DNA from: a virus
Strand: one strand, 5' to 3'
Length of the DNA stretch: 34,131 nucleotides
IMG/VR virus record: IMGVR_UViG_3300045988_046485
Span: 1-34,131 of that record
Of the stretch, positions 945-34,131 are shown in pieces (within the stretch, counting starts at the first letter, position 1; every line of letters begins with the position of its first letter). A program made the translations under genes and the position numbers. A model generated the notes under the pieces. That model made no database searches, was not told the DNA's origin, and saw nothing but the letters and a program-made list of their open reading frames with translations.

Positions 945-1145
945 AAAAAACTTCGGTGATTGAATCCCTTTCACTTTTCAATCTTTCCCTTTCGGGTATC
1001 GTGTCCCTGGTTTCGGTGAGGAACAACCTCTGTTTTTTTTTTGTTGTCTTAAGAAAACCCGGTGATTAAATCCCTTTCACTTTTTAATCTTTCCTTTTTC
1101 GGGTTTCGTGCTTTTAGTTTCGGTAAAAAGCAACCTTGTTTCCTT
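945..1145 (-). ncRNA. Tandem pair of ~95-nt structured RNA domains (unit B 1145..1051, unit A 1038..945) in the 5' leader of the 72-aa gene
   Basis: Two homologous units each have three helices whose sequences differ between units but stay complementary. P1 is GCUUUU/AAAAGC versus GUUCCU/AGGGAC. P2 is GAUUAAA/UUUAAUC versus GAUUGAA/UUCAAUC. The closing helix is AAGGAAAC/GUUUUCUU versus AAAAAAC/GUUUUUU. Loops are conserved: YACCGAAACY and AAGUGAAAGGGA. Confidence 0.55.
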
Positions 1146-1154
1146 TTGACATTA

Positions 1155-1196
1155 CAAATATACGGCTTTTATCAATAGGTTGTACATTCCGTTAAC
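1155..1196 (-). promoter_or_regulatory. Early promoter copy P2 (GTTAAC-N28-TATATTTG)
   Basis: Minus strand reads GTTAACGGAATGTACAACCTATTGATAAAAGCCGTATATTTG, followed by GTAATGTCAAAAGGAAA, which is shared with copy P4. The predicted start is about 1147-1149, 2-4 nt before the first RNA helix. Confidence 0.65.
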
Positions 1197-1218
1197 ATTA
1201 TTTAGGAATAAAAGTGCT

Positions 1219-1574
1219 CTGTCTCACTTAAAACGTTGAAAACCAGCCGTTTAAAAAATGAGATTTCATACTGTGCCACCCCTCGAAAATGCGCTGTCTC
1301 ACTTAACGAGCTACAAACCAAGCCGTTACAACGGAAAAAGCCAACTGTGCCAGGTGAGGCTGATGTTTTCCTATAACTTTATTTGGAATATATAAAATAC
1401 TACTATACTACGAATATTTAGTAGAGGGGGTAAATTTCAATAATCACCAAAATAAAGTGTTATACCATTTTCACTGTCTCACCTGGCACACCTCTATAAA
1501 TAACTATAATACAGCAAGTTAAGTGAGACAAAGACTGTGCCACCTAAAAACCGTGCCTGGCACAGTGGCACAGT
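1219..1574. repeat. Non-coding hub R1: iteron cluster, AT-rich core, iteron cluster
   Basis: 9-mers of the family CTGT[GC][CT]CA[CG] or its complement start at 1219, 1271, 1294, 1345, 1474, 1483, 1523, 1535, 1558 and 1566. A 129-nt AT-rich gap holds the conserved block CCAAAATAAAGTGTTATACCATTTT (1447-1471). No ORF of credible length is present. Confidence 0.85.
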
Positions 1575-1583
1575 TTGAGACGC

Positions 1584-1612
1584 AAAAAGGGCACATTCCG
1601 AAGAATGCACCC
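1584..1612 (-). terminator. Rho-independent terminator ending the late (lysis) operon
   Basis: Minus strand reads GGGUGCAUUC-UUCG-GAAUGUGCCC followed by UUUUU, 13 nt after the stop at 1625. Two G-U pairs make the stem perfect only on the minus strand. Confidence 0.85.
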
Positions 1613-1624
1613 TTAAATCGTGTT

Positions 1625-14424: not shown

Positions 14425-14769
14425 TTACAAGTATTTAAACCAGGCGTAGGGTTTACGGTTTTTTAGGTATTCGGTATCGTGGTCATTGGCGTACGCCTCT
14501 TTCTCGAAGCCCATTCTATCATACGGCTTATCGTTCGGGTCGCATGGTTTCTTTTCAAAACTCCACGCAAAGTAACGTATTACCCACTCGATACCGTACC
14601 AAACGTAAAAAGGCACGTAAAGCATTTCGCGCATCTGTTTGGTGTGAATGCTTTCGTGTCTTATTGTCTTTTCACCTATATAGGCGTTGCCGCGAACGAA
14701 CAACACGCCAAAGAGGTTAATCGCTTTGAAGCCCTTAAAGGGGATGAACTTGTTTCTGATAATCTTCAT
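14425..14769 (-). CDS. small HExxH-motif protein (114 aa), putative Zn-metallopeptidase-like
   Basis: Contains GFKAINLFGVLFVRGNAYIGEKTIRHESIHTKQ (HExxH followed by Q) and a downstream FEKEAY. It is preceded by a 79-nt gap holding its own promoter-like element. Confidence 0.55.
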   Translation of the reverse strand: MKIIRNKFIPFKGFKAINLFGVLFVRGNAYIGEKTIRHESIHTKQMREMLYVPFYVWYGIEWVIRYFAWSFEKKPCDPNDKPYDRMGFEKEAYANDHDTEYLKNRKPYAWFKYL

Positions 14770-14802
14770 AATTTCGTGTGCCGTTCATTAGTTAACGACG
14801 CA

Positions 14803-14833
14803 CAAAAGTACGTAGTATATAACTACAAAACAA
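14803..14833 (-). promoter_or_regulatory. Late-type promoter candidate (TTGTTTTGTAG-N12-TACTTTTG)
   Basis: The minus strand matches the Bacteroidota -33 TTG / -7 TAnnTTTG layout and is near-identical in layout to the element upstream of terS (17809-17839). Confidence 0.5.
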
Positions 14834-14848
14834 GCTGCGTTAAGTCTG

Positions 14849-15250
14849 TTAACCGAATTTGTAGACATCCAAAACGGCCTCCCATCCCGATTTAATGCTA
14901 TCGTATTGGTTCTGCACTTTCGACAAGCGAATAGCGCCTACCTCGTAGCCGCACACGAACGGTGCTAACATCTCATGTATTAAACGGTCTGTGCGTATCA
15001 GTGTCTCAATCTCTACGGCATCATCGCGCATATACTCGGACGTGCCCATACAACGTATTACAATAGTGTAGCCGTTACTACGCGGTACGTTCACGTCGTT
15101 ATAAAAGCCCGTGGTTATGTCCAGAGTGAAGAAGTCCACCGATAAACTGTTTGCCGCTACGTTCTGTACGACTGTATCTCCGAACACCAGCGGAAGCCCT
15201 AAAGCTGCCGCACGTGTATTCGCTGTGTTGTAAATTGTCTCAAAGGTCAT
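14849..15250 (-). CDS. hypothetical structural-module protein (133 aa)
   Basis: ATG 15250, 3 nt after the upstream stop. No motif recognised. Confidence 0.7.
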   Translation of the reverse strand: MTFETIYNTANTRAAALGLPLVFGDTVVQNVAANSLSVDFFTLDITTGFYNDVNVPRSNGYTIVIRCMGTSEYMRDDAVEIETLIRTDRLIHEMLAPFVCGYEVGAIRLSKVQNQYDSIKSGWEAVLDVYKFG

Positions 15251-15954: not shown

Positions 15955-17100
15955 TTATTTAGGGCGATACTTACGTATTAGGTAATCTACGCCATAACGC
16001 AAAGCGTCGAGTGAGTGGTTCCAAGCGTCTATAGGTTCGTTGGTGTACGTATCGGTTGCCTCGTCCTTTATCCATTTGTAGTTATCCAGCTCATCAAGTA
16101 GCTTAACGCTGCGTTTCGTTACGTGCAGTTTGAACTGCTTCACCTGCGCAATGCCAGCTGCCACAGAGCCGCGCCCCTTAACACACGGTATCGCCTTGAT
16201 ACGTCTTTGCTGTAGCTCCACAATACTCTTTTGCTCCGCACTATCGCACACGGTAACGACGCGGTTAAGCCCCTGGCTCGTCAAGTAGTCGGCTATCGCG
16301 CTGTTAAGTAGGCCCGTCTCATAGCAAAGTAAATCTATGTACAAATTCCAGCCCTCAAAGCGTATATCAACAATGGCGGTGGGGTCGTTAACGAAACCGA
16401 AGTCAAGCCCGATGCACCGCCCTGTGAACGTTTCGGGTAATTCGTCGATAACTTCATAGTGGGGGTAAACGTTTCCCTCTACGCCGCCCGTCTCGCCTTC
16501 ACCGTAGACGCGCCACCAGTTGGCATCGTCCTTGTTCTTCTCGATTGCGCCTACCTGCTCTTTGGTTAGGTAAGGGTTATCTTTGTACGTTGAATGGATG
16601 GTTATGTATCTGTCACCTACGAACTCGGTTTCGCCCCAGAACTTCCGCACGGGGTTGAAGTCGATAATAACCTTTTTACGCGTACGGATATCAAGCTGCC
16701 TAAAGATTTCACGCGGTATGCCTTGGGCCTCGTTCACAAAGAGAATATCACGTGCAGGGCCGTGCACCTTTGAAGCGTTATCAACGCCAAAGAATTCTAT
16801 CATACATCCGTTGGGGTACGTGTAACATCCCTCGGTCTTGTTGAACGAATTCTCATCCCATACACCCTCGGAGGCCAACATCTGTTTGAAGTCTCGCTGC
16901 ATGCCTCGCTTCACCATCGGAAGTGTAGCGGCAACGCACGAAACAATAAGGGGCTTTTCGGAGTTGGAGCAAAGGATATGCAGCATTTGCAACGTTGCCC
17001 ACGTCTTGCCGGAACGTGTGCCGCCCTTTGATGCGACACCACGTATTCGGGGGTCGACGAAAGCCGCCAATAGCTTTTCAAATGTGTATGTTACATTCAT
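15955..17100 (-). CDS. terL: terminase large subunit (381 aa), PBSX/Terminase_3-like
   Basis: Walker A is SKGGTRSGKTWATLQ, Walker B-like is ILFVNEAQ, and a C-terminal nuclease-like region reads ..GLDFGFVNDPTA.. and ..DALRY.. . Its start overlaps the terS stop (TGATG). Confidence 0.9.
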   Translation of the reverse strand: MNVTYTFEKLLAAFVDPRIRGVASKGGTRSGKTWATLQMLHILCSNSEKPLIVSCVAATLPMVKRGMQRDFKQMLASEGVWDENSFNKTEGCYTYPNGCMIEFFGVDNASKVHGPARDILFVNEAQGIPREIFRQLDIRTRKKVIIDFNPVRKFWGETEFVGDRYITIHSTYKDNPYLTKEQVGAIEKNKDDANWWRVYGEGETGGVEGNVYPHYEVIDELPETFTGRCIGLDFGFVNDPTAIVDIRFEGWNLYIDLLCYETGLLNSAIADYLTSQGLNRVVTVCDSAEQKSIVELQQRRIKAIPCVKGRGSVAAGIAQVKQFKLHVTKRSVKLLDELDNYKWIKDEATDTYTNEPIDAWNHSLDALRYGVDYLIRKYRPK

Positions 17101-17723
17101 CAGATACCCCCTAACTTTTGTAGGTTCTTGACGGCATCCTCGGAAAGCACATTGACCTGCATAGCCTTTGTGCCGGCTTCCTTACCGTTGCTCGTAACGT
17201 CTTTAAGGTCTCGCAACCCTCGTAGCTTCGCCATGTAGTTAGCGTCCACCATCCCAGCAAGGGCTGCTTCGTCCATCTCGGTTGTGATAAGCTCCTTTAT
17301 CAGAGTGTAGCCTAATAGAAGGTTCTCGGCATCGGGGTTCGTCTCTGAGGCCTTTTCCAGCTTCGCCATGTTCTTATTGAAGTCCTTTATAGACCAGCCT
17401 ATGAAAAGGCAGAAGCCGCCAACAGAGGGCGCGCGTTTCTTCTCCACGGGTACCTTCTGCCCTGCTGCTGCGCCACCTTTCAATATCTCATATTGGGTAT
17501 AGGGGTTCTTCTCGCAAAAGTTCATGTATTCCGCCACATAATTAATACACTCGTCGATGCTGTTAAGCGTAGCGCCTTTAACGCCTCGTGTCTGCACGAC
17601 TTCATAAAGTTGTGTGCATGCCTTCAGCTCTTCCTTTGGTTTCGGGGGTGTCCCGGTTGCCTGCCCTTTCTTGATTTCCTTTTTCGTATCGGGGGCGGCT
17701 TCTTTCTTTGTTCTTCCTGCCAT
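17100..17723 (-). CDS. terS: terminase small subunit (207 aa)
   Basis: Lys-rich N-terminus, then ..KRAPSVGGFCLFIGWSIKDF.., resembling the HTH-like P.t..GLa.flGis block of small terminases. It lies directly upstream of terL. Confidence 0.7.
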   Translation of the reverse strand: MAGRTKKEAAPDTKKEIKKGQATGTPPKPKEELKACTQLYEVVQTRGVKGATLNSIDECINYVAEYMNFCEKNPYTQYEILKGGAAAGQKVPVEKKRAPSVGGFCLFIGWSIKDFNKNMAKLEKASETNPDAENLLLGYTLIKELITTEMDEAALAGMVDANYMAKLRGLRDLKDVTSNGKEAGTKAMQVNVLSEDAVKNLQKLGGI

Positions 17724-17740
17724 AATTGTTAATTGGTTTT

Positions 17741-17780
17741 GTGCGTGCGTGGGTCAATAATCAATGTCCGTGCGCGCGCG
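17741..17780. promoter_or_regulatory. Two 11-nt alternating purine-pyrimidine tracts flanking TCAATAATCAAT in the terS leader
   Basis: Sequence is GTGCGTGCGTG (17741-17751), TCAATAATCAAT (17754-17765), GTGCGCGCGCG (17770-17780), lying 18-57 nt upstream of the terS ATG. Confidence 0.5.
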
Positions 17781-17808
17781 GTCTATTACTCCCTTAAGAG
17801 TGTGGGGG

Positions 17809-17839
17809 CAAAAGTACATAACTTCTCGCCACAAACCAA
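17809..17839 (-). promoter_or_regulatory. Late promoter candidate for the packaging/structural operon (TTGGTTTGTGG-N12-TACTTTTG)
   Basis: Same octamer TACTTTTG and same N12 spacing as 14803-14833. It lies 85 nt upstream of the terS ATG and 46 nt downstream of the nearest R2 iteron. Confidence 0.5.
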
Positions 17840-17884: not shown

Positions 17885-18282
17885 GTGGCACAGATAACGC
17901 ACTGTCCAACAACGAGTTACAAGCGTTTTTGCCTACTGTGCCAGGCACGTTTCTGGTGGCACACCTCGGGTGGCACAGATAACGCGCTACGTATCAGACC
18001 GTTAGGGCGACTGTGCCACTGTGCCAGGCAAAAAGCACTTTTCTAACACTTGGTTTATAAATAGTATATATTACTGCTATCTCTACATTGCAATTACCAT
18101 ATATTTTTCCAAATAAAGTGTTATACCTATTTTATACTATTTAGTGGCACAGTGTAGATAACTATATATAGGTCAGTGAGTTATCTGTGCCACTTGCTGT
18201 GCCACCCTACATTTTTCCTGGCACAGTAACTGTTAACGATATTGTGTATCAGCACTTTAAGTGAGACAGATGGGTGAGACAT
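17885..18282. repeat. Non-coding hub R2: iteron cluster, AT-rich core, iteron cluster (paralog of R1)
   Basis: 9-mers start at 17885, 17936, 17956, 17970, 18011, 18019, 18144, 18185, 18197, 18218, 18261 and 18274. The extended 16-mer GTGGCACAGATAACGC occurs twice (17885, 17970), and its inverted 14-mer is at 18180-18193. A 125-nt AT-rich gap holds CCAAATAAAGTGTTATACCTATTTT (18109-18133). Confidence 0.85.
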
Positions 18283-18493
18283 GCCTATTTATTTTACCAG
18301 CCATACTTGATTATCAGCACGTTAGCACGGGGCATCTTTTGATAAGGAATTTTCAATTAACAATCTAAACACTTTTTAAGAATTGAGCTTTCATAAAAGA
18401 TAATTACAAAGGGCGATTTCTGACTATTTGTAAGCCGAAACCGTCCTTTTGCTATCATTTTTTAAAGGTATATGCTATTCGTAAGGGGCACTA

Positions 18494-20040: not shown

Positions 20041-20066
20041 AATCTTCTGTTTTTAAATCGTTGATA

Positions 20067-20108
20067 CAAATATAACGCTTTTCCCGTTATGTTGGTTCTT
20101 TCGTTAAC
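20067..20108 (-). promoter_or_regulatory. Early promoter copy P3 (GTTAAC-N28-TATATTTG)
   Basis: Minus strand reads GTTAACGAAAGAACCAACATAACGGGAAAAGCGTTATATTTG. Confidence 0.65.
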
Positions 20109-20109
20109 A

Positions 20110-20259
20110 TCATTTAAGCATTAAACTATCCTTCAGCGATAGCCCGTACTCTAATTGCTGTAGCTTGAAATTACGTTGTATGCTGTCCGCGGCGGTCTGC
20201 ATCACGGTGCAGCCTACCAATAGGAGTAGGACTGCGATAACTGCTATTAACTTTTTCAT
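20110..20259 (-). CDS. small lipoprotein (49 aa precursor), below the ORF-track cutoff
   Basis: Translates as MKKLIAVIAVLLLLVGCTVMQTAADSIQRNFKLQQLEYGLSLKDSLMLK, with a KK n-region, a hydrophobic core and the lipobox L-V-G-C. Its ATG overlaps the SNF2 stop as ATGA. Confidence 0.6.
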   Translation of the reverse strand: MKKLIAVIAVLLLLVGCTVMQTAADSIQRNFKLQQLEYGLSLKDSLMLK

Positions 20260-22075: not shown

Positions 22076-22098
22076 GATTTTCTGCTTTTAATTTGATA

Positions 22099-22437
22099 TC
22101 ACAAAGATAATGGTTTTTGCGATATGCTGGTTATTTCCTTAACTTTATTTAAGAAGAAAGTTATTGCGTTGTCCCTGCTCTCCAAATCGTCGATAACAAA
22201 AACCGTGAAGCCGAGCGCCCTTAACTTCTCATGTATATAGGCCTGTATCTTTGTTGGTTTCTTCCCGGTGGTCTTTATCTCGGCAAAGCCTACGTAACCA
22301 CCCTGGCAAATTACCATCCTATCGGGCAAACCTTTTATAAAGGTGGATAATAATTTTATTACCCACACTTTCTTTGTTCTGTTTAGGCGCTCGCTAAACG
22401 TGCGCTCTAAATCTTTTTCACTTATTATATCCATCAT
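22099..22437 (-). CDS. VRR-NUC domain nuclease (112 aa)
   Basis: GLPDRMVICQGGYVGFAEIKTTGKKPTKIQAYIHEKLRALGFTVFVI matches the VRR-NUC G.PD...f.E.K....l...Q core. Confidence 0.85.
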   Translation of the reverse strand: MMDIISEKDLERTFSERLNRTKKVWVIKLLSTFIKGLPDRMVICQGGYVGFAEIKTTGKKPTKIQAYIHEKLRALGFTVFVIDDLESRDNAITFFLNKVKEITSISQKPLSL

Positions 22438-23779: not shown

Positions 23780-24868
23780 CTATTTTTTTTTGTTTAATAA
23801 TTGTTTTACTATTTCCTCTGCTATCCTCTTAACTACCGGGACGGCTACACTGTTACCGAATTGCTTGTATGCCTGCACTTTAGATACCACCACATTGAAA
23901 GGGCGCTCCCCGGTGTTCTTATCGGATGCCCAACCGTCCGAGATTATATTATACCCCTGCAGTCTGCCAGCTTCTTCTACCGATAATTTACGGGGGTTCA
24001 ACCCTTTTTCTGTTTGGTCTATCAGACAGCTCTGCCCGTCCTTATAGTATACTGCTGTTAGTGCGCCGACAAATTCTACCTCCCCGGTGTACTTCTTGTA
24101 TCCAAATCCCTTGCCGTTCTTCACGTTATTCTCTTTTCTTCGTTTATGTCCTTCCCAGGCTTTGTCACTTATCGGTAACGTGTCGGGTGTGTCCTTCAAT
24201 ATATCGGATAATCTCGTAGAGATTGCCCCGGTCTTTGCCTTCTCCTTGTCGTATATAGTATTTCCGTTTATGTCTATTCCGTATGGGAACCAGAAGCCGT
24301 CAGAGCTTATGCTATCCTTGTGCCAAGCCACTATAAACAAGCGTTCTCTATTCTGCGGAAGTCCGAAATATCGTGCGTTAACTATGTCGTAGGCATACGC
24401 GTAGCCAAGCTCTTCTATTGTATCTAAAATAACTTTTAACGTGTTGCCGCCATCGTGCGTCTTTAGCCCTTTAACGTTTTCGAGAAATAATACTTTAGGG
24501 GGTGTCCCGGCTTCTACCTTGGCTTTTATCAAGTTCGCTATGTTAAAAAACAATGTTCCTCGTGTGTCCTCGAACCCCTTTTTAAGTCCTGCGTTCGAGA
24601 ACGGCTGACACGGAAACCCACCGCAGCACACGTCGAACGTCGGGACATCTTCGGCATTAACCTTTGTTATATCGTCGTTGAAAAATAGGTATTCTCCGTT
24701 ACTGTCTTTTAAAAATAGAGAAGGCTCGTCGTCTTTATAATTGGCTTCATACGTTAATCTCGCATACTTGTCTAATTCGCTCGCAAAAACGCATCTGCCT
24801 CCAGCACTTTTCATCGCGGTGTGGAAACCGCCTATCCCTGCAAATAAATCTATAAACTTAAATTCCAT
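23780..24868 (-). CDS. DNA (cytosine-5)-methyltransferase (362 aa), with no cognate endonuclease seen
   Basis: Motif I is FIDLFAGIGGF, IV is GGFPCQPFS, VI is LENVKGL, VIII is QNRERLFIV and X is GNSVAVPV. Confidence 0.93.
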   Translation of the reverse strand: MEFKFIDLFAGIGGFHTAMKSAGGRCVFASELDKYARLTYEANYKDDEPSLFLKDSNGEYLFFNDDITKVNAEDVPTFDVCCGGFPCQPFSNAGLKKGFEDTRGTLFFNIANLIKAKVEAGTPPKVLFLENVKGLKTHDGGNTLKVILDTIEELGYAYAYDIVNARYFGLPQNRERLFIVAWHKDSISSDGFWFPYGIDINGNTIYDKEKAKTGAISTRLSDILKDTPDTLPISDKAWEGHKRRKENNVKNGKGFGYKKYTGEVEFVGALTAVYYKDGQSCLIDQTEKGLNPRKLSVEEAGRLQGYNIISDGWASDKNTGERPFNVVVSKVQAYKQFGNSVAVPVVKRIAEEIVKQLLNKKK

Positions 24869-24919: not shown

Positions 24920-25330
24920 TTAATTGTTCAACGCTTCAACCATTTTTTTAAGCTCTCCGCGGCTTACGGCTATACTGAAAATCTCCGTTAACTTCTCGGT
25001 GATAACCCAGGTACCATTAAGCTTTTGGAAATACGCCTCGTTGTTGCTCGGGTTGTTTAGGCTCACAGTCTCGCCCTTTCGGGGTTTGTATTCCGCAAGG
25101 CTTGCGAGAGTCACCGCGGCTTCCTCGGGTGTACCTAAATGGACTTTCATAATATACCTTTCGGTCTCACGCGTTACCGCCTCAATGGTTATAGACCCAT
25201 CTGTATCTACCAATTTGCAAACGCCCATGCGGAAGGACTTTAATACATCGGGCTTGCCTTGTGATGTTATTTGGCTGAATGCTGATACACTTGTAAGAAT
25301 TAACACTGCTAAAACTACTAACTTTTTCAT
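24920..25330 (-). CDS. secreted/periplasmic protein with a cleavable signal peptide (136 aa)
   Basis: MKKLVVLAVLILTSVSAFSQ has a K-rich n-region, a hydrophobic core and an A-F-S-Q cleavage-type site. The mature part has no recognised motif. Confidence 0.65.
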   Translation of the reverse strand: MKKLVVLAVLILTSVSAFSQITSQGKPDVLKSFRMGVCKLVDTDGSITIEAVTRETERYIMKVHLGTPEEAAVTLASLAEYKPRKGETVSLNNPSNNEAYFQKLNGTWVITEKLTEIFSIAVSRGELKKMVEALNN

Positions 25331-25413
25331 AATCTTTTGTTTTTAAATTGTTATATGATATAAACAACGGATGCTTTGTGAAGGTTCACCGTTATCGCCT
25401 TATTAATTTTTAT

Positions 25414-25761
25414 TTATTTATTCTTTCTATAGAATGCTCTATATGCTTTTTCGATGGCTTCCAAATTAGCTTTAGACTTTGATACCTTTAAAACAGTGTC
25501 CCAGTGGTTGAGACTCATTTCCTTTTTGTAGACGATACCTTTTGCCTGCATAAAGCTTTCAGCTGCACTGATTTCGTCTTCGTTATAACCTCTACTGGAG
25601 AAGGACAAACCAACTGTAGTTAATACGTTGCTATTAAAAGCGTAACCCAACATCACGGCCAATTTCCAAAGCTTGTTATTGAGGAAATTAATCTCTCCCA
25701 AACATGTTGCGTTCTCTTTTGTTGCTGCCGGTGCAAATACTTTGTAGCTTAAATTAGTCAT
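25414..25761 (-). CDS. hypothetical early protein (115 aa)
   Basis: ATG 25761 lies downstream of promoter copy P4. No motif recognised. Confidence 0.7.
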   Translation of the reverse strand: MTNLSYKVFAPAATKENATCLGEINFLNNKLWKLAVMLGYAFNSNVLTTVGLSFSSRGYNEDEISAAESFMQAKGIVYKKEMSLNHWDTVLKVSKSKANLEAIEKAYRAFYRKNK

Positions 25762-25802
25762 AATCTTTATTTTTAAATTGTTATTATTTCATTTTGACAT
25801 TA

Positions 25803-25844
25803 CAAATATAGGGTTTATTCTGATACGTTGTATCTTTCATTAAC
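25803..25844 (-). promoter_or_regulatory. Early promoter copy P4 (GTTAAT-N28-TATATTTG)
   Basis: Minus strand reads GTTAATGAAAGATACAACGTATCAGAATAAACCCTATATTTG, followed by GTAATGTCAAAATGAAA (shared with P2). Confidence 0.65.
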
Positions 25845-25890
25845 ACTGTTTAAGAATAAACCCTTTTTTAGTCAATCTGTTAACAAGTCG

Positions 25891-28341
25891 TTAACTTTCA
25901 AACATGCTATCCACGTCTACGTTAACAATTCTTTTGAATCCCCTTTGTTGTCCGTATGGCTTCACTCTCTGTCTGCTACGTTCCCATCCGGGTAACTTGT
26001 TCAGTATGTCGTTAATCTCGGAAGCATCTCTGGCCTTAATCTTTCCTACCTCGAAGCCTAAAGCCTCAACCAGCACGCCCGTAGCGCTAACGAAGTCCAT
26101 CTGTACGCAGTCCTCTTTTGTTATCTCGTCCTCGTCGTAATTCTCGTAATACATACGACGTTCCAGAGGGAACATCTTCTCCCAGTTGGTCGGTACATAC
26201 ATATCGCAATACTTTGCAACGGCTTCGGTGCGCGGGTCTGTCTCGAAGTGCTCCTCTCTGCCTTGTTCGGCTATTACTTCGGCCTCTGCTGACAGCAACG
26301 TAGACACACCGCGGAAATACATATTAACGGCCTCCGCCCATAACTGGTCTACGTATGCCGGGAAATCGGCCTCGAAGATAAGATGGGTGTTTTCGTTGGC
26401 ACGTACACGTACGGGTAAAAATCTACGCCCCCCTGTTGCGTCCTTCAAAAACTCGTCCTTGTTGGTCGTCCCAAAGAAAACGCACTGGCGCGGAAAGTTC
26501 TTGGTAACGCGCCCGTACGCTGGTCTAAAACTGTCCTCGGTCTTGGTGATGAAGTTCTTAACCATCTCCACCTCTGAACGTCTCATTGCTGATAACTCGG
26601 CTATTTCCAGTATCCAGCTACCTTGCAATTGTTCAAAAGCCGATTTACCATCCATCGTTGACAAGCTATCCGAGAACCACTGTTTACCCAGCATCTTAAG
26701 GAATGTACTTTTTCCCGCTCCTTGGTCGGACTGTAAGACCAGCATACTATCAAATTTGCAGCCCTTTTGGAAGATACGTTTAACAGCGCCCACCAGCATG
26801 ATACGGAAAGCCTCGCGAGTGTATATGTTATCCTCCGCACCGAGTATATCAATCAACGCGGTATCTACCCGTTCTGTGCCGTCCCATTCTAATTTTGTCA
26901 GATAGTTCTGCACCGGGTGGAAAGAGTTAATCTCGGCAACAAGTGAGATAGCATCATCTACCTTAAACGAACTACTGATGCCGTAAACATCTTCGATATG
27001 TTTTCTAACGCCTGCAAAATCTACGTCTTGGAAATCCGTGCTGCTATCCTTCGGTCTCCATATCGGGGTACGGGTAACCACCCTGCGTTCTTTAAATAGG
27101 TCACGGGCTATCAAGCCTTTTAAATTCGGGTCATACTTAAGTATTAAACCCAGGTTCTTTGCGCTCGGTAAGTAATTACCTTTTTTATCTACTTCGAGTT
27201 CTGCCATCACTTTTTCAAATGATACCTCGGGCACGTTATCATGTACCTCTTCGGGTTCTATCGTCTCCTCGAAGTCGTTCATAACCTCGGTAGCCTTTGC
27301 CAGCAAACGAGACGCGCGCATTTCCGCTACCTTTGCGTCCTTGTTTACAAGTTCATTCATCGCGTCTGTTGACTTCGTGCGGTCTTGTCCCTTATCCATC
27401 TTACCGAACTTGTGTACACGTACCAAGTCATAGGCATTAAACACGTGGTTTCCTTGGATAGGGTCGTTGTTATGGAACGAATAGGCGAACATATCATCAA
27501 AAGTAAGCATGCCCCCGGAGGTAGAACCACCGCTATACGTCCATCTATCGGGTTGGTCTGTTGGCTCGTAAACGTCCGGCAAGTATTCCGCGATAACTTC
27601 TGAAATGGTGTACGCCCGGCAAAAGTCGCCTACCGTACCTTCCTTTAGCGTCGGGTCTTGCTGCTCCTTAATGAAGGTACGTACTTCGCCTTTCTCATCC
27701 TTGTGGTATGCCCATTCCGTCGTGTTGTGCCAATCTTCGTACATGTTAAGGTATTCGTTGACGTCTAAAGGAAACTCGCACAACTGTGAATAGTCGGTGT
27801 AGTCATAATCTACGTCTCGGGACACCGAGGGGAAGAACATACAGCGTTCGGGCTGAAACGTCGTGCGGTCATACAAATCTATCCCGGTAATCTCGGCAAC
27901 CTTCCTGGCAATAGCTTCGTACTGCTCACCGTCCACGGGTTCGGACAATGGAATGATAACACGGTATCGAAATGTATTTGCCTTCGGGTTATGCTTATGC
28001 GTCCCGTGTATGATGCACGCACAGTTTATCACTGCGAAAAATCGCTCCGGAAAATCTGCCTCTCCGTAGTCGATATCAAGCACCAATAGCGAACGCTCGC
28101 CTACGTTGTTTTTGTTTCGCCTGCTACCGAATAACTCACCGCCCATGAATGCGCCTACGTCTTTAATCGCCCCTTGTTCGGCTTTGCTCGCTGCCATGAA
28201 CTCGCGGTATGTTTCCTCCGTTACTTTCGCACTGGTGAACCTCTTTACAAGTTCCTCCCATGTGTAGGTACGGTTTTTCCAACTTACCGATTTGGCATTC
28301 GTCGCAGTGGCAACCTTAAAAGTCATTTTCTTTAAATCCAT
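25891..28341 (-). CDS. primase-polymerase fused to a VirE/D5-type P-loop helicase (816 aa)
   Basis: The N-terminus has LLVLDIDYGE (catalytic DxD) and GTHKH. The C-terminal half has Walker A LQSDQGAGKSTFL and VirE-like ILEIAEL / GGRRFLPV blocks. Confidence 0.85.
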   Translation of the reverse strand: MDLKKMTFKVATATNAKSVSWKNRTYTWEELVKRFTSAKVTEETYREFMAASKAEQGAIKDVGAFMGGELFGSRRNKNNVGERSLLVLDIDYGEADFPERFFAVINCACIIHGTHKHNPKANTFRYRVIIPLSEPVDGEQYEAIARKVAEITGIDLYDRTTFQPERCMFFPSVSRDVDYDYTDYSQLCEFPLDVNEYLNMYEDWHNTTEWAYHKDEKGEVRTFIKEQQDPTLKEGTVGDFCRAYTISEVIAEYLPDVYEPTDQPDRWTYSGGSTSGGMLTFDDMFAYSFHNNDPIQGNHVFNAYDLVRVHKFGKMDKGQDRTKSTDAMNELVNKDAKVAEMRASRLLAKATEVMNDFEETIEPEEVHDNVPEVSFEKVMAELEVDKKGNYLPSAKNLGLILKYDPNLKGLIARDLFKERRVVTRTPIWRPKDSSTDFQDVDFAGVRKHIEDVYGISSSFKVDDAISLVAEINSFHPVQNYLTKLEWDGTERVDTALIDILGAEDNIYTREAFRIMLVGAVKRIFQKGCKFDSMLVLQSDQGAGKSTFLKMLGKQWFSDSLSTMDGKSAFEQLQGSWILEIAELSAMRRSEVEMVKNFITKTEDSFRPAYGRVTKNFPRQCVFFGTTNKDEFLKDATGGRRFLPVRVRANENTHLIFEADFPAYVDQLWAEAVNMYFRGVSTLLSAEAEVIAEQGREEHFETDPRTEAVAKYCDMYVPTNWEKMFPLERRMYYENYDEDEITKEDCVQMDFVSATGVLVEALGFEVGKIKARDASEINDILNKLPGWERSRQRVKPYGQQRGFKRIVNVDVDSMFES

Positions 28342-32659: not shown

Positions 32660-32701
32660 CAAAGATAACAACTAATTTGTTACGTTGGTTCTTTCGTTAA
32701 C
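32660..32701 (-). promoter_or_regulatory. Early promoter copy P6 (GTTAAC-N28-TATCTTTG)
   Basis: Minus strand reads GTTAACGAAAGAACCAACGTAACAAATTAGTTGTTATCTTTG. Confidence 0.6.
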
Positions 32702-32706
32702 TTCTT

Positions 32707-33885
32707 TTATGAATTTAATTCCTCAAACATATCTAAAGTAGGTTGTATCGGTTCTCTTTTATCGCTTTCCGGTGCGAGCGTTGGCGCGCCCTGGGGCTTG
32801 ACTATAACACCATCCAACAGAACCGTTAACGGCTTCTTTCCTACGGTTCGTTCCAGGTCTCCGATGCCTTTTATCTTCGTATTGATAAGGGCTTCCCGGT
32901 CAAAACCTGCCTCCGTTAGCCGTTTTAAGGCCTCTGCTTCGTCTTTAATGACCCGTGCCGACCTGCCCTCCACCAGCTTCCACCCGTTAACGTGCTTGCC
33001 GCTTAAGGCTTCGGACATCGCAAACTGTTTAACTGATGCCAGCCAATCGCTAAACATGTCCGCCTTATTGAGTATATCCCCTATTTCTTCCAAAGATAGG
33101 GCTTTGGTTTCTCCGTGGGTCTCGAACTCGTTAACCAGTGCGTCACGTTGCGCCCGGCATTGTGCCTTAAACTTGCAGAACTTACAGTGCGCCCCTACTT
33201 TCGCTTCTCCCTGCCCGGCAAATGCTTTCTCTGCCGTGGGTCTTAGTACGTGTATCGCCCAGTGGGTTAAATCTCGTGCCGTCATCTCGAATACCGGGAA
33301 GTGCCCCAGGCGTACCTGTGCAATGTGCATACGTACCGTTTCTATTTTAGACTGCTTTTCGGGCGGTAGGGAACGAAGAACGCCAAGCGCGTACAACATT
33401 AGCTGCGTGTTGTTCTCGGCTTCCACCTGCACGCCCTTTCCGTACTTAAGGTCTATGATGTTTAGAACCTTTTCGCCTACTATGTCGCAGTCGCAGCTAC
33501 CGAAACAATCGGGTACATACATTGTTAGGTCAAACTTTCGTTCTATGCTCATTCCCGCGCCCTCTATGACCTCGTAAACGTCGCACACGTAGCACACGTA
33601 ATCGGTTACGTACTTATCCATCTCGGGGTTGTAATACTTGTTTTCCGCAATATCTTTTGGTACGGGCAATTCATCAAGTAGGGGGGTGTATTCCCCGGCT
33701 AAATACTTCCGTATTGCGTGCTCTGCCAACTCGTGAGCTACTGTTCCCTCTTCCGATGCCGCGCTTCCCGTGCTCGGTATGTTTTCTTCCAACCGTGCGG
33801 ACGGTGTGCAGTTCATCCAGCGGTGCGAGCTACTGGGAGATAGGAGCGCATGCGCGCGCTCGTTATGGTTTATCTGTTCTTTCAT
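32707..33885 (-). CDS. PD-(D/E)XK exonuclease with Cas4-like Cys cluster, DUF2800-like (392 aa)
   Basis: The N-terminus has LSPSSSHRWMNCTPS, the nuclease core is DCDIV...IIDLKYGKG, and a C-terminal CKFCKFKAQC combines with the N-terminal Cys in a 4-Cys arrangement. Confidence 0.8.
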   Translation of the reverse strand: MKEQINHNERAHALLSPSSSHRWMNCTPSARLEENIPSTGSAASEEGTVAHELAEHAIRKYLAGEYTPLLDELPVPKDIAENKYYNPEMDKYVTDYVCYVCDVYEVIEGAGMSIERKFDLTMYVPDCFGSCDCDIVGEKVLNIIDLKYGKGVQVEAENNTQLMLYALGVLRSLPPEKQSKIETVRMHIAQVRLGHFPVFEMTARDLTHWAIHVLRPTAEKAFAGQGEAKVGAHCKFCKFKAQCRAQRDALVNEFETHGETKALSLEEIGDILNKADMFSDWLASVKQFAMSEALSGKHVNGWKLVEGRSARVIKDEAEALKRLTEAGFDREALINTKIKGIGDLERTVGKKPLTVLLDGVIVKPQGAPTLAPESDKREPIQPTLDMFEELNS

Positions 33886-34131
33886 CTTGTCAAGGGGTAA
33901 TTTTCAATACGTTGTTTAAGTAATGCGAATTTAGAGGCGCTAACCTTTGAAAGTGATGTGCCCCCGAACTCCAAAAGTATAGATGCCATTTCGTCACGGG
34001 TAACGTGCCCAGACTTTACACTGGATATTACGAGGTGTTGCATTTCCTTTAAAGTAGGTGTTTCATCCTTTGTTTCTTCTTCTGCCTTTGCAGGTTCTTC
34101 TGCCTTTGCAGGTTCTTCTGCCTTTGCAGGT
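33882..34131 (-). CDS. C-terminal part of the wrap-around PAKAEE-repeat ORF
   Basis: Reads PAKAEEPAKAEEPAKAEEETKDETPTLKEMQHLVISSVKSGHVTRDEMASILLEFGGTSLSKVSASKFALLKQRIENYPLTR, then a stop. The stop overlaps the ATG of the exonuclease gene (ATGA). Confidence 0.7.
   Translation of the reverse strand, partial: PAKAEEPAKAEEPAKAEEETKDETPTLKEMQHLVISSVKSGHVTRDEMASILLEFGGTSLSKVSASKFALLKQRIENYPLTR
34078..34131. repeat. 18-bp tandem repeat x3 (TCTTCTGCCTTTGCAGGT); the last 53 nt duplicate nt 1-53
   Basis: Direct reading of the sequence. Confidence 0.9.

Follow-up and report, generated by a model that had tools for sequence, protein, structure and literature searches.

The question raised by this locus is what function is served by hub R2 (positions 17885-18282), a non-coding region directly upstream of the small terminase gene terS in a 34,131-nt viral DNA (IMG/VR record IMGVR_UViG_3300045988_046485), and why this region has a counterpart, hub R1 (1219-1573), almost opposite to it on the genome. 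Hereafter, the whole stretch of 34,131 nt is referred to as the window. In both hubs, short repeats (iterons) surround an A+T-rich core. The initial annotation offered three options for the pair, namely dual replication origins, a packaging (pac)/terminase recognition region with a paralog, and paired platforms for a separate regulator. In our opinion, R2 and R1 are probably two copies of an origin of the staphylococcal pathogenicity island (SaPI) type, the iterons of which are read by the phage primase-helicase; this assignment is based on homology, anatomy and co-variation. Thus, the first option gains support, since the hubs have a SaPI-type anatomy, a homologue of SaPI1 Rep is encoded by the phage, and the wing of this protein tracks the iteron class. 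The other two options lose ground and are discussed below together with the evidence that bears on them. The arrangement was also described as unusual, which is an overstatement given the precedent of oriL and oriR in the phage SPP1 (PMC6316719).

The ends of the window are identical over 53 nt (1-53 = 34079-34131); therefore, the window represents a circularly permuted genome with a circle of 34,078 bp. The window phage is a lytic Bacteroides siphophage. At ~80% DNA identity, it is related to cultured lytic siphophages infecting Bacteroides uniformis (BU1-1, BU2-2, BU3-1, EMB1, EMB2, BU241P1/2 and others), and the hosts of more distant relatives are B. salyersiae and Phocaeicola. For this group, with about 200 genomes, the family name 'Bacteroiduroviridae' was proposed (PMC12694917).

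Organization of the hubs

The exact motif CTGTGCCAC occurs nine times in the window against 0.14 copies expected, and 9/9 copies are located within 1271-1573 or 17885-18205. The broader 9-mer family CTGTSYCAS is represented by 19 copies (0.82 expected; shuffle maximum 4), 18 of which are found in the two non-coding hubs. When one mismatch was allowed, there were 56 hits in the window, including 23 inside the hubs, which occupy 812 nt (2.4% of the window). In both hubs, the iterons flank a core with 24-28% G+C.

The twelve iteron positions proposed earlier for R2 were confirmed (Table 1): ten are exact family members, and two carry one mismatch (17956, GTGGCACAC; 18274, GTGAGACAT). They are indeed split six and six by the A+T-rich core, which contains 24.1% G+C versus 45.9% for the genome. 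The extended iteron GTGGCACAGATAACGC was found at 17885-17900 and 17970-17985, with its inverted copy at 18180-18193. The core-proximal doublet of the left set, CTGTGCCACTGTGCCAG, is directed at the core and is invariant among close relatives. The innermost iterons of R2 converge on the core (18011+ and 18019+ versus 18144-), and each side of both cores has iterons on both strands. Two boxes, CTTTTCTAACA (18038-18048) and CCAAATAAAGTGTTATACCTATTTT (18109-18133), are present in the R2 core. On the right side, inverted extended iterons (GTGGCACAG..GATAAC / GTTATCTGTGCCAC) make up an imperfect palindrome at 18144-18193. As single-stranded DNA, the right iteron region folds better than its shuffles (z = -3.75), which is expected because of the inverted repeats. 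Inspection of the A+T-rich cores by eye revealed neither a canonical TAnnTTTG promoter nor a DnaA-box-like sequence.

The likeness of R2 to R1 was assessed in the same way. The 25-nt box at 18109-18133 matches R1 1447-1471 (CCAAAATAAAGTGTTATACCATTTT) in the same orientation, and the two differ by one indel and one substitution or, equally, by two 1-nt indels. The core spacing, 16,662 and 17,416 bp on the 34,078-bp circle, also agrees with the earlier estimate. The description of R2 as a second copy of R1 is correct with regard to architecture, while the paralogy is plain only after aligning relatives. In the window, R1 and R2 have in common only the iterons, a 21-nt exact inverted doublet and the 25-nt box; a blastn comparison of the window with itself gave no R1/R2 match at E<1e-5, the two being too diverged.

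The predicted initiator

The predicted iteron reader is an 816-aa primase-helicase of the VapE / SaPI Rep1 family. Its VapE-like superfamily 3 (SF3) ATPase domain was recognized by PF05272 (E=2e-80), and residues 395-740 match the SaPI1 Rep1-dsDNA complex (PDB 7PDS; phmmer E=5e-76). The AlphaFold2 model of residues 395-816 (mean confidence, pLDDT, 91.7) was aligned by Foldseek to 7PDS with a TM score of 0.82 over 438 columns at 33-34% identity. The next fold matches were the primase-helicases NrS-1, ASFV PrimPol, MPXV E5 and SaPI5 PriRep5.

The last ~70 residues of the model comprise two helices and a beta-hairpin wing (helix-helix-beta-hairpin, 745-804). The wing, GWERSRQRVKPYGQQRGFKRIV, is hypervariable and is predicted to determine specificity. 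When the C-terminal domain (CTD) was modelled alone (pLDDT 87), the sole significant matches were to the CTD of SaPI1 Rep1 (TM 0.69-0.78), and the winged helices of forkhead and ORC proteins were weak-scoring runners-up. When the CTD alone was used as the query of a word-index protein search, only 4 homologues were returned, and a search with the helicase and the CTD was required for the alignment. The C-terminal ~100 residues evolve fastest, with 38-43% identity to the orthologues from B. uniformis phages versus 81% for the rest of the protein.

No iteron cluster was found beside the primase-helicase gene (25891-28341); the hubs are situated ~7.6 kb downstream and ~7 kb upstream of it. Among the open reading frames (ORFs) scanned, neither DnaB nor a helicase loader was seen.

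Co-variation of the wing with the iteron class

The dominant repeat in about 70 related genomes falls into at least seven classes: TGGCACA (window clade), CTGTGCA, CTGTGTA, CTGGTCA / CTGGCCA, TGGAACA, CTGTTAC and CTGTGAC. Among the 24 genomes in which both hubs were available and the class was callable, R1 and R2 had the same class in 21, the other three fell below the count threshold, and there were no conflicts. The agreement of the class between the hubs suggests that one protein would serve both. It also answers a question posed by the initial annotation, namely whether R1 and R2 co-evolve in related genomes: the class agrees wherever it can be called.

For 41 distinct primases with cores >95% identical, pairs of the same class were 6.8 points more alike in the C-terminus, with a permutation p of 1e-4 that is not a true probability, the sequences being phylogenetically related. 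In the same test, the class difference for the primase core was 0.3 points. Along the protein, the effect was about zero except for alignment columns 781-840, i.e., the wing, where it reached 10.7 points. This localization of the signal to the wing is a stronger argument than the p-value. The class CTGTGTA corresponds to the wing GW[K/R]R.A[D/E] (8/8), CTGTGCA to GWQR.A[N/G/K], and CTGGTCA to GWQRAAGRRAV. The primase of the locus L043 has a core of the B. uniformis/window type (77% identity to the window, compared with 58-60% for the primases of Phocaeicola phages), and it combines a Phocaeicola-type wing with the Phocaeicola-type iteron TGGAACA.

A column scan of the 47 ORFs of BU1-1 likewise placed class-discriminating residues in the primase wing (32 versus 8 genomes). 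Among the early-region proteins present in most genomes, only the primase wing co-varies with the iteron class. The one other hit of the scan, an HNH endonuclease with 10 discriminating columns, was discarded: the gene is absent from most genomes, and the signal, from 9 versus 3 genomes, was regarded as a lineage artefact of the small sample.

These data bear on the second option of the initial annotation, a pac/terminase recognition region with a paralog. In an explicit form of this option, TerS would bind the repeats around a cleavage core in R2, and R1 would be a paralogous second pac. R2 is indeed directly upstream of terS and terL, and its repeats-core-repeats layout resembles known pac sites, such as pacL/pacC/pacR of SPP1 and pac of P1. 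Moreover, the relative EMB2 was reported to be a headful (pac), circularly permuted phage (PMC9584325; the packaging position is not given in that paper). However, not a single TerS column separates the iteron classes, and TerS was rejected as the iteron reader for this reason. L048 (CTGTGTA) and L002 (CTGTGCA) are identical in the N-terminal 110 residues of TerS, and class D genomes (CTGGTCA/CTGGCCA) have a class-B-like TerS. TerS of the window shows no excess divergence over its neighbours (77%), despite the different iteron. In addition, R1 carries the same iterons 16.7 kb from terS in every genome, and the co-variation signal lies in the primase wing. Hence, we consider a pac function of the hubs very unlikely; a pac site may be present elsewhere in or near R2 or in terS.

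Another variable locus adjoins the primase-helicase gene. Just downstream of it, at 24920-25761, there is a hypervariable slot with a matching slot in L001-L114. The small genes found there (for a FaeA-like winged-helix protein, lipoprotein-like ORFs, methylase fragments and others) are unrelated to each other, are shuffled among otherwise near-identical genomes and are unlinked to the iteron class. A small regulator encoded in this slot was considered and rejected, because the genes of the slot are shuffled accessory ones and its FaeA-like protein does not differ between classes.

Conservation of the hub pair

In all nine complete cultured relatives fetched, non-coding gaps occur at both hub positions, that is, after the lysis genes and upstream of terS. 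Self-comparison of these genomes revealed a direct R1/R2 paralogous segment of 200-290 bp with 75-84% identity in eight of them. The joint alignment of R1 and R2 from the window and six B. uniformis-phage relatives gave a common order: left iterons, a TTTTYCTAWA box, an A+T-rich stretch, a CCAAAATAATGTTTTACCCC box and right iterons. The window box CCAAATAAAGTGTTATACC aligns with the CCAAAATAATGTTTTACCCC box of the B. uniformis relatives, and both core boxes are alignable in R1 and R2. A TTTTCCTATA-like box is also visible in hubs of other genera.

The pair can be followed much further. In remote relatives, the primases of which have 42% identity, two paralogous segments ~13 kb apart around the primase gene were found at 5/8 loci (L100, 538-815 / 14604-15120; L113, 3194-3447 / 16154-16670; L104, L109 and L111), and their iteron, CGTAAACA / GTAAACAAT, differs from that of the window. 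The hub positions were confirmed for L113: one hub follows holin/endolysin, and the other is upstream of a 175-aa ORF and terL. This ORF is in the terS position and has no family match. In the hubs of L113, the iteron GTAAACAAT surrounds a very A+T-rich core. The first gene after the R1-like hub of L113 encodes a predicted helix-turn-helix repressor-like protein. The contigs L100, L104, L109, L111 and L113 come from other metagenomes. At the near end of the scale, ten or so IMG/VR contigs are 84-92% identical to the window and have the same iterons. The initial annotation had associated a lack of R1/R2 similarity in relatives with a recent accidental duplication; the similarity is present, and the pair is ancient.

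Constraint was expressed as the share of invariant alignment columns among eight close (window-clade) genomes. For the iteron nucleotides, it was 88% in R2 and 97% (96.6%) in R1; for the A+T-rich core, 90% and 80%; and for the spacers between iterons, 72% and 82%, respectively. The values for codon positions 1, 2 and 3 of terS/terL were 87%, 91% and 46%. The central part of R2 (18007-18230) was 91% invariant. Thus, the hubs are as constrained as second codon positions.

The two halves of a hub behave differently in the six B. uniformis-phage relatives. The left half is position-specific (R1 versus R1, 87-100% identity; R1 versus R2, 63-73%), and the right half often shows more similarity inside one genome than across genomes. 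The latter suggests that R1 and R2 change in concert where the iterons are. Such likeness would also be produced by sequence exchange, and the pair might be a functionless remnant of duplication or a recombination hotspot kept alike by gene conversion. However, the pair is retained over a range of primase identity from 97% down to 42%, each lineage having iterons of its own, its constraint equals that of second codon positions, and the iterons co-vary with a protein domain. This explanation is therefore scarcely credible.

The position-specific left halves fit a more substantial possibility, namely that the hubs are unequal. One of them, plausibly R1 at the head of the early arc, would fire, and R2 would be an auxiliary site bound by the initiator. 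As variants of this, R2 could be a programmed fork barrier switching replication from theta to sigma (concatemer synthesis) just upstream of terS, or a looping cis enhancer like crr of P4. In SPP1, oriL and oriR share their organization and are both bound by gp38, and oriL starts replication, with stalling at oriR proposed as the switch (PMC6316719). Only the right half is common to R1 and R2, so the hubs are not interchangeable; the extended iterons are particular to R2, and the packaging genes adjoin it. However, the full module (two-sided iterons, A+T-rich core and both boxes) is kept at both hubs in every lineage, both cores are strongly constrained, and a pure barrier or enhancer would need no unwinding core. 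On balance, inequality of the hubs seems unlikely to us, but it is a serious alternative, which would refine rather than contradict the assignment of the hubs as origins.

Proposed initiation at the hubs

Taking the SaPI Reps as a guide, initiation from such origins could proceed as follows. The primase-helicase, a fused Pri-Rep protein of the VapE / SaPI Rep1 family, would recognize the 9-bp iterons CTGTGCCAC and their variants by its C-terminal winged helix. Initiator hexamers would then assemble on each side of the 115-120-nt core. It is suggested that the hexamers melt the A+T-rich core without a separate loader, after which they could proceed as the replicative helicase with the fused primase. 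By this analogy we infer binding, melting, helicase loading and the start of replication at the hubs.

Several observations weigh against this assignment. The co-variation described above is correlative. In SaPIs, the origin is immediately downstream of rep, whereas the hubs flank the primase gene at a distance of ~7 kb. The sequence of the A+T-rich core is conserved, and two boxes in it are common to genera; this exceeds the needs of a simple unwinding element, so another function or a host factor may be involved. The placement of R2 just upstream of terS also suits a packaging site. The GC/AT skew is monotone genome-wide and displays no origin/terminus signal, although it is uninformative in this respect because all genes are on one strand. 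Finally, no clear 7-mer class was called in the BS162P3-like clade (L007, L087, L088, L089, L091 and L114). A longer or more degenerate iteron, e.g., CTGTACWGGGCA, is possible there. The hubs are present in this clade, their R1/R2 paralogy is weak, and R1 contains a long palindrome. The primase C-terminus of the clade is of a different type (WEFCGIVGNDKTYGKQASYVRKC).

As a speculation, which we regard as rather doubtful, the two complete modules, each heading one operon, may couple replication to expression and packaging, and the rapid diversification of wing-iteron pairs may result from selection for private replicons closed to co-infecting relatives or satellites. Forks would be started or stalled by initiator hexamers at R1 and R2, which would also gate the adjacent early and late promoters, and theta replication would be converted to concatemer replication at the terS/pac end of the genome. 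There are at least 7 classes of wing-iteron pairs, some of them one base and two residues apart, and many co-occur in one metagenome.

Predicted transcription signals around the hubs

Practically all long ORFs of the window are on the minus strand. In the order of transcription, the early/replication arc includes small ORFs, an exonuclease, an SSB-like protein, PolA, the 816-aa primase-helicase, an SNF2 helicase and others. The replication module also contains DUF2800/DUF2815-type proteins (according to the annotation of BU1-1) and a VRR-NUC-type nuclease. The late arc consists of terS, terL, structural genes, holin, endolysin and a DUF6549 protein. As stated in the initial annotation, terS is directly downstream of R2 (phrog_606 match, E=1.6e-11) and is followed by terL.

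The promoters and terminators discussed here are predictions, with the Bacteroides consensus TAnnTTTG matched by eye for the promoter calls and conservation in relatives taken into account. A scan for sigma-70 promoters and terminators gave results at chance level, the sigma-70 model being uninformative for Bacteroides. The late promoter candidate noted earlier (17809-17839) contains a putative Bacteroides -7 box at 17816-17809, ~70 nt downstream of the last R2 iteron; TACCTTTG occurs there in aligned relatives. On the other side of R2, a terminator-like hairpin would close the early arc. It has a perfect stem GGGCGGTTTC/GAAACCGCCC in close relatives, and B. uniformis phages have a clean hairpin at the position matching 18400-18446. 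R1 is arranged similarly, with a predicted terminator upstream and a copy of a repeated early-promoter element downstream. Being placed between a predicted terminator and the next promoter, each hub should be free of transcription. The distance from the hub end to the -7 box of the next operon is 55-90 nt (R1, 1155-1162; R2, 17809-17816).

This proximity recalls the third option, in which the hubs are operator or enhancer platforms of a dedicated regulator that couples early shut-off to late turn-on by controlling the early promoter next to R1 and the late promoter next to R2. The many small early ORFs of no known function would offer candidates for such a protein. However, apart from the primase-helicase wing, no early-arc protein tracks the iteron class, and a candidate regulator was not found in this arc. 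Between classes B and C, there is essentially no difference in the FaeA-like winged-helix protein, which many genomes lack. Furthermore, an A+T-rich core flanked by inward-pointing iterons is atypical of an operator, and the promoters next to the two hubs differ in type, one being an early repeat element and the other a late promoter. We consider a dedicated regulator highly improbable. Binding of the initiator beside both promoters may have a regulatory side-effect.

The early-promoter element is a ~77-nt repeat with a minus-strand -7 box TAnnTTTG (usually TATATTTG), the copies of which are 60-78% identical; the repeat search grouped 5 copies in the window into one family. It is located at the head of each early/middle transcription unit, and relatives have 5-7 copies in matching places. 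Judging from this distribution, the repeat is probably the early promoter cassette of the phage. In the ~240-nt leader from the R1-side early promoter to the first early ORF (695-913), there are two 50-nt direct repeats, 943-992 and 1049-1098, which are 86% identical (TTAAAAAACTTCGGTGATTGAATCCCTTTCACTTTTCAATCTTTCCCTTT). The R1-side leaders of BU1-1, BU2-2 and BU3-1 contain related sequence. The leader that follows the late promoter and runs to the start codon of terS (17724-17808) is G+C-rich, with alternating purine/pyrimidine runs (GTGCGTGCGTG, GTGCGCGCGCG). Its motif GCGCGCGGTCT is conserved in the window clade, and aligned relatives have a related GC-rich ..CGCGGTCT.. stretch. The stability of the leader RNA 17724-17808 was not above that of shuffles (z = -0.61).

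Table 1. Positions of the hubs, their parts and the associated genes and predicted signals in the window
Feature	Coordinates	Strand	Remarks
Hub R2, predicted Rep-type origin module	17885-18282	.	Left iterons / A+T-rich core / right iterons
R2 left iterons (six)	17885-18027		17885(-), 17936(+), 17956(-, 1 mismatch), 17970(-), 18011(+), 18019(+)
R2 A+T-rich core, presumed DNA unwinding element	18028-18143	.	116 nt, 24.1% G+C
R2 right iterons (six)	18144-18282		18144(-), 18185(+), 18197(+), 18218(-), 18261(-), 18274(-, 1 mismatch)
Hub R1, paralogous second module	1219-1573	.	Ten iterons, 4+6 around core
R1 iterons	1219, 1271, 1294, 1345 (one side); 1474, 1483, 1523, 1535, 1557, 1565 (other side)
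R1 A+T-rich core	1354-1473		120 nt, 27.5% G+C; holds the 25-nt box at 1447-1471
Primase-helicase, 816 aa, predicted iteron reader	25891-28341	-	VapE / SaPI Rep1 family, PF05272
C-terminal winged helix of the primase-helicase, residues 745-816	25891-26109	-	Hypervariable; predicted specificity determinant
terS (small terminase)	17100-17723	-	phrog_606; first gene downstream of R2, terL next
Bacteroides-type -7 box TACTTTTG (TAnnTTTG)	17809-17816	-	Predicted promoter of the late terS-terL operon
Terminator-like hairpin closing the early arc	18400-18446	-	Stems 18411-18420 / 18437-18446, then T-rich run
Predicted terminator hairpin ending the late arc	1583-1615	-	Just upstream of R1 in the direction of transcription; 97% invariant
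Copy of the repeated early-promoter element	1136-1212	-	Directly downstream of R1; -7 box TATATTTG at 1162-1155
Copies of the ~77-nt repeat	639-715, 1136-1212, 20048-20124, 22083-22159, 25784-25860, 32679-32718	-

Other features of the genome

The assembly junction (1-71 / 34043-34131) falls within an 18-nt tandem repeat, CTTCTGCCTTTGCAGGTT, encoding PAKAEE repeats. The 173-aa early protein that spans the junction is the most diverged shared protein of the genome (~33% identity to its B. uniformis-phage counterparts) and gave no Pfam match. A C-5 cytosine DNA methylase (23780-24868, minus strand; PF00145, E=4e-82) is encoded in the window and in at least part of the clade, and is absent from 5/6 B. 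uniformis-phage genomes compared. In BU2-2, there is a weak partial match (29% identity over half the length), and a DNA methyltransferase is annotated elsewhere in that genome. The Rfam scan of the window found zero RNA families.

Significance and comparison with known systems

We found no description of the hubs in the papers on these phages or by full-text searches; there is no mention of them in the announcement of EMB1/EMB2 or in the BU1-1 paper, and in the paper on rumen Bacteroides phages the putative origin is only a 15-nt overlap. Our results provide, for the first time, a concrete and testable prediction of origins in this large, abundant family of cultured human-gut Bacteroides/Phocaeicola phages, specifying the cis sites, the initiator and the residues that would set specificity. 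It would extend the self-loading mechanism of SaPI Reps from staphylococcal satellites to lytic phages of another phylum. The matched wing-iteron pairs form a natural series for studying winged-helix recognition and replicon specificity, and the combination of one hub and the primase-helicase gene is a candidate for a minimal replicon to be used in Bacteroides vectors and in the engineering of phages. The conservation of the duplication down to 42% initiator identity (with positions checked in one remote relative) raises the questions of why there are two origins and why they are at these places.

The closest known system is that of SaPIs. The SaPI Reps are self-loading initiator-helicases, in which a C-terminal winged helix reads short iterons (PMC9371898). 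SaPI origins contain 6-12 iterons, which a central A+T-rich region divides in half; at least two iterons per side are in opposite orientation, and two hexamers are thought to load, one per side (PMC9371898). The window phage has a homologous predicted initiator, with the VapE/SF3 ATPase and a CTD with a winged helix, and its iterons (6+6 in R2 and 4+6 in R1) surround an A+T-rich core in both orientations on each side. In SaPIs, the hypervariable CTD is the seat of specificity, and the same would hold here, as indicated by co-variation only. As in SaPI5, primase and helicase are combined in one protein. The differences are also clear. SaPIs are staphylococcal satellites, and the present element is a lytic siphophage of Bacteroidota. 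The iterons are 5-6 bp long in SaPIs and 9 bp here, and the A+T-rich core of the phage has boxes conserved across genera. A single origin beside rep is replaced by two full copies, ~7 kb either side and at operon boundaries.

With regard to the number of sites, SPP1 is the nearest parallel. Its replication starts at oriL, and a stall at the gp38-oriR complex was proposed to trigger the switch to concatemers (PMC6316719). SPP1 and the window phage both have two distant origin-like regions of the same organization (repeats and an A+T-rich unwinding element), presumably served by one initiator, and one of these regions is in or next to the late region and bracketed by transcription signals. Both belong to siphophages with headful packaging and all genes on one strand. 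However, SPP1 uses gp38 with the loader gp39 and the DnaB-type helicase gp40, whereas an unrelated, predicted self-loading SF3 primase-helicase is found here. In addition, oriL is inside gene 38 and both hubs are intergenic; the SPP1 origins are ~13 kb apart on 44 kb, and the hubs are nearly opposite each other.

The resemblance to pac sites is limited to the position of R2 next to terS and to a core with repeats at either side. It is the primase-helicase, and not TerS, that co-varies with these repeats, and the other copy, which is equally well conserved, is distant from terS.

The satellite phage P4 provides another two-site precedent. Its alpha protein unites primase, SF3 helicase and a C-terminal winged-helix origin-binding domain in one polypeptide, and its iterons occupy two separate cis sites, ori and crr, of which crr is an iteron-only auxiliary region. 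Unlike crr, which has no unwinding core, both hubs have an A+T-rich core and both boxes. The origin-binding domain of P4 alpha was not among the PDB fold matches of either model at E up to 10. In iteron plasmids of the RepA/TrfA/pi class, repeats are likewise situated beside an A+T-rich unwinding element and are bound by an initiator with a winged-helix DNA-binding domain. The plasmid Rep is not a helicase and needs the host DnaA, DnaB and DnaC, and the iterons are usually direct repeats on one side; its fold was not found in our fold searches. The two-origin layout proposed here had not been described for these phages; the origin type is already known and involves no new principle.

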